Shown in pieces: positions 37,455-40,313 of a DNA stretch of 64,000 nt. Each line of letters begins with the position of its first letter. Within the stretch, counting starts at the first letter, position 1. The stretch is taken from the NCBI GenBank assembly GCA_040753435.1, contig JBFMEN010000069.1:47551-111550 (forward strand), read 5' to 3'. The notes under the pieces were generated by a model. That model did not search any database, had not been told where the DNA came from, and was given only the letters and a program-made list of their open reading frames with translations. The position numbers were made by a program, and so were the translations under genes. This DNA comes from Candidatus Omnitrophota bacterium. GTDB lineage: Bacteria > Omnitrophota > Gorgyraeia > Zapsychrales > JANLHA01.

Positions 37455-40313
37455 ATGAATTTCCAAAAGCAAAAATTTCATACTTTTTTCAGAGTACTCG
37501 CCATGAGCATTCTTGTGCCTTTCGTGTTTTCGGTCGTTTGCCCAGCTGCGTTTACGCCGGCTTTTGCTCAAACAGTCCTTAATCTGCCTGCCCCCGGGAC
37601 AATGATCTCACCAAGTCCCGGATACAATCCGGCAACGATTGTCGGGATGACGGTCCATCCGGATGACCCGTTTTTGTTTGATTTCATTGTTCATCCGGGT
37701 GACGACAAACTTGAGGGAGAGAATCTGCAAAGAGAATCGCTGAAGATGGTCCGGTATTTTATGGCTGCATTGACAGTTCCTGAAGATGAGATGTGGGTCA
37801 ACCTCTCGCCTTATGAAAAAGACCGCATTGTTCCTGTAGGTTTTGGCGATACGGAGATGGGAAGGGATCTACTGGCCCAGGATTATATCCTGAAACAAAT
37901 GACGGCATCTTTAATGCATCCTGGGGAAAAATCGGGAAGCGAATTCTGGACGCGTATACGGGAAAAGGTAAGGGAAAAATTCGGGACAAATGAAATTCCC
38001 GTGAACACATTTAACAAAGTCTGGATCGTTCCGGACAAGGCCACGGTGTATGCCAGCGGAAGCCGTGTTTTTGTCGTGGATAGTCACTACAAGGTCATGC
38101 TGGAGCAAGATTATTTTGCCATGAAAAGCCATTCCGGATCTTCAGAAAATGGGAAAAACCTGGCAGTCCATGGGGAGTCCGGGAATGAAAGGGCAGATGA
38201 ACTGTCAAAAAAAATCACCCGGGAAATCATTCTTCCCGCGATCGAGCGGGAGATCAATGAAGGCCGGACTTTTGCCAATCTCCGCCAGATATCAAATGCG
38301 GTGATCCTTGCGACATGGTACAAACGTCATGTCGTTGGCGGAGCTCTTGAATTATTTTACGCTGACAAAAATAAAACCGCCGGGATCAGCAACGGGGATA
38401 AGGAGATCACCGAAAAAATTTATAATCAGTATGTCGAATCGTTCAGGAAGGGTGTCTATCATTTCATCAGGGAAGAGTACGATGAGACAACCCGGGAAGT
38501 CATCCCGCGGGAGTATTTTTCAGGAGGAGTTGTGCAGAAAATCGCGGATATGGATACGGCCGGTGACATGGGCGAGCTGGAAGAGACCATTCGCGGGAGT
38601 TCGGAATTCCAGATCCGGTTTGATCCGGTTAGAGTAAAGGAAGACGGGCAGGACGCGGCGATGTTAACGTCTGAGGAGGTCGCGCGGATGCTGGAAGAGT
38701 CGAACCAAGATTACTATTCGCGGTTAGGGGTTGATAAATCGGCCGATAAAGCGGCGATAAAGGCAGCTTACCGGAAGTTGATTATGAAATGGCATCCGGA
38801 CAAGAATGGCGATACATCCGGAGATCTTAAAGATTCGTTTACAGAAATAGCCCAGAATCTTTCCGAGGCCTGGGAAATATTACAGGATGAAGAGCGACGA
38901 AAAATTTATGACGAGGGAGGTCTGGGAAGGGGTGCAGCCGGTTTTGGGCAAGAAGAAGATTTTAATTTCGATGAATTTTTCAGCCAGTACCGGTGGAAGG
39001 CGCCCCGAACCCTGGATGAGATTTTGCGTGATCTTGATTCGGATAATAAAAAGGTATCTTTTCAATCTCTCGGAGAAATTGAAAAGATGATCCGCGAGGA
39101 GAGATGGCATGAATTTTCACCAGAGTCTGTTGAAGAGGTAAAGAATCTTATTGCATCAATAAAGCGGATTAAGGATGGGCATGTCCGGATGAGAGCGGTT
39201 GAGGCGCTGGGACGAGTGGCCAGAAAAGAATTTGTGACCCTTTCCGGGGGGCTCGGACGTTGGAACAATTATGAAGGGGATCAGGAAGAGACGCCCCAAA
39301 CTCTTGCGACAAACGGTTTGATTGAAATCCTTCAAACCGATGATGACCCTTCTGTTTCATATTCTTCAGTCAATACTTTAGCAGAGATCGGAGGGGTGAC
39401 TGCGACGGAAGCTCTGGTCCGGAATGTCAATCATCCTCATTCGGCAACTCAAAAATTGATCAGGTGGGTTTTAATTGCCTTGGGGAACAACACGGCTTAT
39501 CCCGGGAAAGAGACATCGCGTTTGACAGTCCGTTTGCTGAATAAAAGTCTTTTATTCGGCAAACGGCAGATACAGGCCGCCGTTAAAAATATTCTGGATG
39601 AGATTAGGGAAGAATTCAAACAACCGGTTGATATGACTCCCCGCAAAATGGCGATCACTCGCGTCCTGGGGGATTTGTCGAACGGATGGAATGACGGGCG
39701 CGAGGGGCGCGGGACTTTTAAACTGCACAGCCCGGAGTATGATGACTATAATTACATGGAGTCGCTGGAATTTAATATCATTTTATACGCAGAGCCTTTT
39801 TATCAAGGAGAGGTGGAGGAAGTTTTCAAGATCCTTGATGAGCTTAAAGAGCGTTTTCCGGCGCTGATTGTGAAGTTTGTTGAAGATGAAGAGATCACAG
39901 CCTTCGGGCTGCATCTCCTGGGGAATGACGAGGCGCTTGCGCACATGAACTTCCGGGGTAAAGTTGAGCAATGGCTCCGGGACAGGCTTGAGGAGGTTCT
40001 TACCGAGGAAGGGATGGATGGAGGAACTGGAGATCAGGATTCGGCCATGCTGGGAGACGGGGGAAGAGCAGACAATTTTTTTCAAAGTGGTGAGGATACA
40101 AAAGGCGGTATTGATTTAAACCCGGCTCATATTGATATTGAGACGAAACAGGCGGACAGTAAAGAAATTATTTTTTCTCTCGGAAGCGGTGTTCCGTTTA
40201 TGGATTCGATTGAAGGTTTTCAGCCGGTCATTATTCACGTTGCGCCGGTGACAAATATTCCAGGACTTCTTGGCCGTAAGGAAGATCCGGAGGAATTTTC
40301 GACGAAGTCCTGA
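37455..40313 (+). CDS. Large exported/membrane-anchored hypothetical protein (952 aa): conserved N-terminal domain shared with the next gene, internal DnaJ (J) domain, HEAT-like helical repeats, acidic linker and conserved C-terminal 'GGIDL' tail
   Basis: N-terminal hydrophobic signal ending AFAQT. Residues ~60-400 are paralogous to the next ORF ([77 protein letters not shown]). A canonical J-domain lies at 38709..38920 (DYYSRLGV...KWHPDKNGD...[17 protein letters not shown]). It ends with GGIDLN...[16 protein letters not shown]. Confidence 0.6.
   Translation: [952 protein letters not shown]

Follow-up and report, generated by a model that had tools for sequence, protein, structure and literature searches.

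The window analyzed here, the whole of a 64,000-nucleotide stretch of DNA from a Candidatus Omnitrophota metagenome-assembled genome (MAG), contains on its forward strand a gene (37455..40313) for a 952-residue protein which, as judged from its sequence, is a predicted exported class-C J-domain protein. The product of this open reading frame (ORF) is identical to the NCBI entry MEW5895946.1, which is encoded on a 119-kb contig and labeled 'DnaJ domain-containing protein'. From its N-terminus, the protein consists of a predicted Sec-type signal peptide (residues 1-38; 37455..37568), with the h-region at residues 14-32 and the c-region TPAFA|Q; a conserved N-domain (residues 39-358; 37569..38528) that ends in YFSGG and is the module defining a large protein family; a linker (residues 359-418; 38529..38708) with a predicted helix plus strand at 371-393, the motif DAAML at 400-404 and Met412 (ATG at 38688); the J-domain itself (residues 419-486; 38709..38912); a short Gly/Phe-rich linker (38913..39011), as read from the sequence; helical repeats resembling HEAT/PBS-lyase units (residues ~520-722; 39012..39620); a small alpha/beta region (residues ~784-850; 39804..40004), modeled with low confidence and with its function unassigned; a conserved C-domain starting KGGIDLNP (residues 881-940; 40095..40274), modeled with a pLDDT of 77-87; and a short acidic C-terminal tail (40275..40310), the protein ending in FSTKS. 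It is followed on the same strand by a tandem paralog of 1180 residues (MEW5895947.1; 40409..43951), which has a signal peptide (VHA|QE), the N-domain and the C-domain, and carries a different cargo.

By all sequence measures, the J-domain is genuine and complete. The initial annotation of this DNA had described a J-domain with the HPD tripeptide in the middle of the protein, HEAT-like repeats behind it and an adjoining paralog devoid of a J-domain, a description that Pfam bears out on each point. The DnaJ model PF00226 aligns to residues 419-486 over its entire profile (1-63 of 63; E 7.5e-20; 71.2 bits against a gathering threshold of 27.8), and the HPD tripeptide occupies residues 447-449 (38793-38801), between helix II, which is basic, and helix III. 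C-terminal of the J-domain, the repeats are recognized by the HEAT_2 model PF13646 at residues 620-682 (39312-39500), above its cutoff, and the paralog contains no J-domain. The J-domain shares 45% identity (E 8e-20) with that of E. coli DnaJ. The Gly/Phe-rich stretch directly after it resembles the G/F region of DnaJ and CbpA, and the alignment to the NCBIfam model DnaJ_bact reaches residue 510. Besides DnaJ and HEAT, nothing in Pfam or NCBIfam matched the 952-residue protein.

On its sequence, the protein is a class-C (J-domain-only) J-protein, because it has neither a zinc finger nor a C-terminal DnaJ domain and its mature form has no Cys. Membership in class A or B, represented by DnaJ and CbpA, was rejected, as neither PF00684 nor PF01556 matched and the NCBIfam DnaJ and CbpA models gave 47-71 bits against cutoffs of 338-619; the full-length HscB model of NCBIfam likewise scored far under its cutoff. 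An identity as DjlA was also discarded, given a score of 31 bits against a cutoff of 162 for the PRK09430 model, the internal position of the J-domain and a charge distribution that predicts a C-out orientation. A homolog with the same domain order, which the initial annotation had proposed to look for, does exist: the ortholog P0002 has 935 residues, is 46% identical over 97% coverage and presents the N-domain, a J-domain with its HPD retained and the HEAT region in that order. Identity between both proteins is 66% in the J-domain, 63% in the N-domain, 40% in the HEAT region and 30% elsewhere. When the cargo (residues 400-880) was used alone as a query, the search returned generic DnaJ/CbpA J-domains at 34-51% identity and no free-standing J-plus-HEAT counterpart.

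Used as a query, the complete protein had over 3,700 significant matches, all of which except P0002 cover only its first 33-51%. To size the family, residues 40-360 were scanned exhaustively with HMMER against 1.84 billion representatives; at E<=1e-3 there were at least 7,899 clusters, defined at 50% identity, and at E<=1e-30 there were 5,777. Among the 150 best matches listed, the N-domain match begins within the first ~77 residues, in proteins of 420 to 4,743 residues. The N-domain is encoded at 570 or more loci of species-representative genomes, and the best 80 of them come from MAGs titled Omnitrophota or Omnitrophica by their depositors, except for 25 titled Planctomycetales and 2 titled 'bacterium' only. 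Among these 80 loci, up to ten belong to one MAG, tandem arrangement is frequent, and the MAG of the window itself has at least five members by locus tag (AB1650_06520, _07125, _08840, MEW5895946.1 and MEW5895947.1). A phage origin of the family was discarded on the grounds that one locus was found among 2.9 million viral contigs. This locus, L083 (IMGVR_UViG_3300031576_000207), is at the end of a 34.5-kb contig that may be a misclassified cellular contig or the flank of a prophage. The family, as defined by sequence, appears to be Omnitrophota-specific, is without a Pfam or NCBIfam model and is apparently undescribed; no description of it was found in literature searches. A profile search against PDB sequences gave low-complexity noise only, and no PDB structure matched the N-domain in fold.

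The members share a common layout, in which a signal peptide, an alpha/beta N-domain of ~320 residues ending in YFSGG, a variable cargo (from about 180 to over 4,000 residues), a C-domain and an acidic tail follow one another. The mature N-terminus is near-invariant (Q-[ST]-V-L-N-L-P-x-P-G-T-M), and the signature of the N-domain, QxVLNLPxPG ... WVNLSPYE ... YFSGG at residues ~40-360, is present in the window protein. So is the pattern of the C-domain, a beta-rich unit of ~60-70 residues (GGIDLNP...PVIINVTPVTNIPLLLG; family pattern GGIDLNP ... G..PVIINVxPVTNxPxLLG). Both domains occur together in 96 of 120 top matches, and across ~885 kb of Omnitrophota DNA from the 80 loci the C-domain was never found in a complete ORF without the N-domain; a homolog search with the C-domain profile returned fragments of 54-120 residues only. 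In addition, pairwise identities in the N-domain and the C-domain are correlated (r=0.36, against a maximum of 0.125 in 300 permutations). On these sequence patterns, the N- and C-domain behave as the paired parts of a single bracket that encloses a variable insert, and we refer to the bracket family accordingly. The tail has a median of 18 residues, 21% of them Asp or Glu, and often ends in L-S-x-L-N; in about a third of the members it ends in Phi-[ST]-x-Phi, typically in this form, and may be a terminal sorting tag. Separately, a motif D-[AGS]-A-M-[LIVM] flanks the cargo of the window protein on both sides, as DAAML at 400-404 (38652-38666) and DSAML at 862-866 (40038-40052), and occurs in the paralog as DGAML. 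It is found 2-96 residues after the N-domain in 33 of 266 members and within 80 residues upstream of the C-domain in 9 of 181, and could be a processing or release site.

For the N-terminus, the initial annotation had left a choice between an uncleaved membrane anchor, export and a mis-called start. The signal, the charges, the single hydrophobic segment and the Cys content all speak for export, and the anchor and the internal start are disfavored. In our own sequence scan, the window protein has the basic n-region, the h-region and the AFA|Q site expected of a Sec signal cleaved by signal peptidase I (SPase I). Across the family, a -3/-1 site is found in 245 of 251 complete N-termini, with Ala at -1 in 86% and Gln at +1 in 81%; the median net charge of the n-region is +3, an uncharged run of ~18 residues comes next, Pro-Pro ... 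Tyr-Ala|Gln is the usual sequence of the c-region, and the charge over the 25 residues beyond the site is about 0. Since the charge lies N-terminal of the hydrophobic segment, an N-in/C-out orientation is predicted, and the signal appears to be selected as cleavable because AXA|Q and helix-breaking prolines would be purposeless in a plain anchor. A return of the chain across the membrane is not expected either, because the protein has no second hydrophobic segment: residues 14-32 reach a Kyte-Doolittle (KD) value of 2.3 and the next best segment, at 1.15, is the C-domain. Similarly, in 139 of 183 relatives no segment beyond the N-domain has KD>=1.8, and the segments that reach this value in the others are mostly found in the C-domain. 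A Tat signal was rejected, the strict twin-arginine motif being found in 0 of 260 members (RR beside the h-region in 31 of 260), and a lipoprotein signal was rejected for lack of a lipobox Cys at +1.

The content in Cys points in the same direction. The mature window protein (residues 39-952) has none in 914 residues, and in the family Cys accounts for 0.02% of the N-domain and 0.05% of cargo plus C-domain (212,854 residues), compared with 1.52% in 45 other ORFs of the window, which were mechanically called and stand as a control from this one window. This amounts to a 30-75-fold depletion, and 134 of 178 cargoes (median 671 residues) have no Cys at all. Exclusion of Cys is a signature of proteins leaving the cytoplasm in organisms without disulfide handling, and of passengers that cross the outer membrane unfolded. 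In the window, a TonB-dependent receptor-like outer-membrane protein (31921-33621) also has an AFA|Q-type signal end and 0 Cys, with cytoplasmic neighbors at 1-4%, and it may be that this organism excludes Cys from its exported proteins in general. Because AXA|Q is conserved, the charges are N-terminal, there is one hydrophobic segment and Cys is excluded, we consider it highly probable on sequence grounds that the J-domain is exported out of the cytoplasm rather than tethered to its inner face.

The cargoes of the family are diverse and resemble cytoplasmic machinery. Our own Pfam scan detected a full-length phosphoglycerate kinase (PGK; E 3e-65), a triosephosphate isomerase (TIM) and a class-I aldolase within one protein (E 1e-66 and 8.5e-86), a B12-binding plus radical S-adenosylmethionine (SAM) cargo and a proline dehydrogenase cargo. 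The precomputed Pfam accessions of the top matches add what we take to be methyltransferases, ROK kinase, NUDIX, HAD, histidine phosphatase, macro and HATPase domains, and presumably also glycosyltransferase and sucrose synthase, UDP-glucose pyrophosphorylase, TetR and others. Judged by their sequences, the enzyme cargoes look functional and not like relics, because catalytic motifs are kept: GHSERR and AYEPVWAIGTG in the TIM cargo, RPDLNVP and HLGRP in the PGK cargo. The radical-SAM cargoes of P0018 (761-768) and P0092 (658-665) keep the CxxxCxxC Fe-S ligands in otherwise virtually Cys-free proteins, a retention that would be hard to reconcile with unfolded Sec export unless the clusters are loaded elsewhere. 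The genes of the PGK protein and of the TIM-aldolase fusion lie outside gap-pgk-tpi operons. J-domains occur in 4 of the 120 top matches (~3%), namely the window protein and P0002, which have it at the same place, P0063, whose HPD J-domain (Pfam E 2e-23) directly precedes the C-domain, unlike the mid-cargo position here, and P0033, which has J-like segments without HPD. None of 288 family sequences fuses an Hsp70 to the N-domain.

The genes around the tandem pair are housekeeping in appearance. Upstream lie genes for PabB-like, TonB-dependent receptor, alpha/beta hydrolase, GNAT, CrcB, TatD and ThiF-family proteins, and downstream those for TrpE, TrpG-D and TrpB-like proteins. The paralog begins 95 nucleotides (nt) after the J-domain gene with no terminator-like site in between; its start was placed at TTG 40367 in the mechanically called ORF and at ATG 40409 (1180 residues) by NCBI, and the latter gives the family-typical n-region MNRQKLPLLHR. 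The upstream spacer (37081-37454), AT-rich and of unusual length at 374 nt, contains T-runs, a terminator-like hairpin of the upstream gene (37198-37224) and, on the forward strand ~57 nt before the start codon, a promoter-like site TTGCCT-16-TATAAT (37371..37398) from a consensus scan, suggestive only in that the number of such sites does not exceed the shuffled expectation. Rfam detected no RNA family in the whole window, this spacer included. All but six of the ORFs of at least 150 residues are on the forward strand, the GC skew is positive in every 2-kb bin, giving a monotonic rise of the cumulative skew, and the whole window probably belongs to a leading strand.

If the J-domain is exported, the question arises of where it finds its partner. 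Its sequence suggests that it probably still meets an Hsp70, because it is 66% conserved between the orthologs and HPD is retained. Three candidate meeting places can be considered, which are the cytoplasm of another cell, the cytoplasm of the producer before export (in cis) and an energized extracytoplasmic space; to our knowledge, neither an Hsp70 nor an ATP pool has been described in a bacterial periplasm. As for the producer, a canonical hrcA-grpE-dnaK-dnaJ operon, whose DnaJ has the usual Cys-rich zinc finger, is found at an Omnitrophota locus (L072, 752-5451), and the 64-kb window has no DnaK. At that locus, a bracket-family gene (5920-8511), whose cargo has hydrophobic segments and HEAT-like repeats, lies directly downstream of the operon, an adjacency that is probably coincidental.

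Our tentatively preferred reading, for and against which the case is nearly balanced, is that the window gene encodes a Sec-exported, Cys-free class-C co-chaperone acting on the Hsp70 of an attached prey or host cell. According to this model, the signal peptide would export the protein via Sec, after which the bracket would carry or anchor the cargo outside the cytoplasm of the producer. The J-domain would then work where Hsp70 and ATP are present, most likely in the host or prey cytoplasm of an attached ultra-small epibiotic or predatory bacterium; there, the DnaK/Hsp70 of the victim would be made to hydrolyze ATP by the HPD loop, and the client or the site would be chosen through the HEAT repeats. 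In this way, the presence of intact glycolytic, kinase and radical-SAM cargoes among the relatives would be accounted for as well. We favor a cytoplasm-like workplace beyond the inner membrane of the producer because a single explanation ought to hold for those relatives too, whose PGK, TIM, aldolase, kinase and radical-SAM cargoes are intact. The cytoplasm of another cell is a plausible destination because of the host-dependent lifestyle, the open cytoplasmic contact and the J-domain effectors known elsewhere. Indeed, most Omnitrophota are ultra-small organisms that depend on a host or live as predators (PMC10066038). In the case of Ca. Velamenicoccus archaeovorus, predator and victim were seen by transmission electron microscopy (TEM) to be in open cytoplasmic contact, and intron RNA of the predator accumulates in dead archaeal cells (PMC13153191).

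Several points weigh against this reading. The signal-peptide call comes from our own sequence statistics and scan, and both the h-region (~18 residues) and the total signal (~36 residues) are long for a Sec signal. The evidence on transport stops at the inner membrane: we know of no mechanism that would translocate the bracket family into another cell, the fold of the N-domain offers no hint of its function, and linkage to a secretion apparatus amounts to a type II secretion system (T2SS)/type IV pilus (T4P)-type ATPase at 1 of 82 loci. Moreover, J-domains are rare among the cargoes, sizes of up to 4,743 residues and many members per genome are unusual for effectors, and there is no obvious rationale for delivering housekeeping glycolytic enzymes into prey. 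The locus of the ortholog P0002 (L081) carries a gene for an MshEN plus T2SSE (GspE/PilB-like) ATPase (6807-8276), 3.5 kb downstream of P0002 and on the opposite strand; the other loci show no linkage of this kind.

A first alternative, which we judge rather unlikely, is that the protein is exported and stays in the periplasm or on the surface of its producer, the bracket anchoring or displaying the cargo on the envelope. The J-domain would then serve as an Hsp70-independent binding module, or act on the material of lysed or opened prey, or work in an unrecognized energized extracytoplasmic compartment. The export evidence (signal statistics, single hydrophobic segment, Cys depletion) fits this possibility equally, the lack of a secretion-system linkage over the 82 loci fits as well, and the TonB-dependent receptor gene of the window indicates that an outer membrane is there. 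In addition, two preprints on giant proteins of Omnitrophota both favor a surface or periplasmic placement of multi-enzyme proteins (10.1101/2023.11.21.568195; 10.64898/2026.06.07.730766). On the other hand, the periplasm is without ATP or a known Hsp70, yet the HPD J-domain is 66% conserved; catalytic motifs are retained in enzymes requiring ATP or phosphosugars, and radical-SAM cargoes keep their Fe-S ligands, though extracytoplasmic Fe-S assembly is not known.

It has also been considered that the J-domain acts in cis before export, recruiting the DnaK of the producer to hold the HEAT region unfolded and competent for Sec, and has no later role. This would explain the conserved HPD without any extracellular Hsp70, the canonical cytoplasmic operon of Omnitrophota would supply the partner, and in E. 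coli some Sec precursors can be kept competent for export by DnaK/DnaJ. We nevertheless regard it as improbable, since all members share the export problem, many of them being much longer, and a J-domain is found in so small a fraction of those sampled. Its position also varies, from mid-protein here to next to the C-domain in P0063, and we know of no precedent for a J-domain embedded in the substrate itself.

Translation from an internal start at Met412 would give a cytoplasmic J-protein of 541 residues with its J-domain at the N-terminus, the usual position. A check of internal Met codons, which had been proposed in the initial annotation, does find AGGAGG (38674-38679) 8 nt upstream of this ATG, seven codons before the J-domain (AGGAGG-N8-ATG, 38674-38690); such a 6-mer Shine-Dalgarno sequence precedes 2 of the 330 internal in-frame ATGs of the window, and the Met is conserved as Met404 in P0002. 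At that equivalent Met the Shine-Dalgarno sequence is absent, and in the window gene AGGAGG is explained by the Ser-Glu-Glu-Val codons. Strong Shine-Dalgarno sequences are found at 8 of 53 gene starts in the window, so that few genes use them. Furthermore, the sequence that follows Met412 has the lack of Cys seen in the exported family and finishes with its C-domain, and in thousands of relatives the cargo has stayed fused between both conserved domains, all of which makes this start very improbable. Least probable of all is a membrane-tethered cytoplasmic Hsp70 recruiter of the DjlA/Sec63 kind, also raised in the initial annotation, in which the hydrophobic segment would be an uncleaved anchor, as its length (~18-19 residues) and the cytoplasmic look of the family cargoes would allow: it needs the topology opposite to the one predicted by positive charges placed before and not after the segment, it leaves the conserved AXA|Q and the Pro-Pro c-region without a purpose and the extreme exclusion of Cys unexpected for cytoplasmic domains, and the DjlA model scores far below its cutoff.

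An exported and conserved HPD J-domain would imply that something unexpected takes place, since a J-domain is of no use in the absence of Hsp70 and ATP, and bacteria are known to have these in the cytoplasm only. Either these epibionts send working cytoplasmic machinery into other prokaryotes, or a compartment of their envelope supports such chemistry. It is possible, if rather less than likely, that the bracket is a new phylum-specific placement system that sets cytoplasm-type machines (glycolytic enzymes, kinases, radical-SAM proteins, J-domains) to work outside the cytoplasm of their own cell. If this is true, the workplace would be attached prey or host cells, which would represent a large modular repertoire of inter-prokaryote effectors with prey Hsp70 being hijacked, or else an unknown energized extracytoplasmic compartment. 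In any case, a large family of at least 7,899 clusters, without a Pfam/NCBIfam model or a fold relative in the PDB, has been defined. The mid-sized members of this family, with an N-domain of ~320 residues, a C-domain of 70 residues, AXA|Q and Cys exclusion, make the puzzle of extracellular metabolic domains in giant proteins experimentally tractable.

This puzzle has been posed already in the same phylum, by two preprints. Giant Omnitrophota proteins of at least 10,000 residues ('Archaeovorins', multi-enzyme class) have been described (bioRxiv 10.1101/2023.11.21.568195 and 10.64898/2026.06.07.730766), and the fact that their glycolytic domains are 'predicted extracellular' has been called a puzzle (bioRxiv 10.1101/2023.11.21.568195). 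Like the bracket family, they combine a signal peptide with HEAT_2, radical-SAM, kinase, NUDIX, HAD and glycolytic-type domains that are predicted to be extracytoplasmic, and both groups present the same localization paradox. Text searches of both preprints found no mention of the N-/C-domain bracket, Cys exclusion, DnaJ or Hsp70.

In terms of architecture, parallels exist with several export systems. MARTX toxins carry a variable array of effector domains between conserved N- and C-terminal regions; as in the bracket family, the ends are conserved and flank an interchangeable and enzymatically diverse cargo in many combinations. MARTX toxins differ in their use of a type I secretion system (T1SS), glycine-rich repeats and a cysteine protease domain for release, whereas the bracket family has a Sec signal, an alpha/beta N-domain, a 70-residue C-domain, no protease domain and almost no Cys, and there is no sequence similarity between them. 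Cargo of the type IX secretion system (T9SS), a system of Bacteroidota, carries a Sec signal peptide and a C-terminal sorting domain of ~80 residues (PMC11285876). Here too an N-terminal Sec signal and a small beta-rich C-terminal domain are shared by otherwise unrelated exported proteins; unlike T9SS sorting domains, the bracket C-domain, in which no T9SS similarity was detected, is always paired with the 320-residue N-domain and followed by an acidic tail. An autotransporter was discarded as a model, as no beta-barrel translocator was matched in Pfam or NCBIfam and the C-domain is too short for a barrel.

With regard to the J-domain, DjlA and Sec63 also combine it with a membrane-targeting N-terminus, but their J-domain faces a compartment that contains Hsp70 and ATP. 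ERdj3-type proteins of the endoplasmic reticulum (ER) lumen combine a J-domain with a signal peptide that is cleaved, and their partner is a lumenal Hsp70. We know of no other bacterial family of J-domain proteins that bear a Sec signal. The closest functional analogs would be effectors: HopI1 of Pseudomonas syringae is reportedly a type III effector with a C-terminal J-domain, and the exported Hsp40s of Plasmodium are said to be similar. These proteins share with the window protein an HPD J-domain in a product leaving its producer, thought to engage a foreign Hsp70, and a class-C make-up of a J-domain plus unrelated regions. They differ in that there is no homology outside the J-domain and HopI1 uses the signal of a type III secretion system (T3SS), against a predicted Sec signal here, and in that their targets are eukaryotic, while by analogy the presumed targets here would be bacteria or archaea, delivery to which we infer. 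Taken by sequence, the window protein is an ordinary class-C J-protein in an unusual context, which relates it both to the exported multi-domain proteins of Omnitrophota and to effector-type J-proteins.

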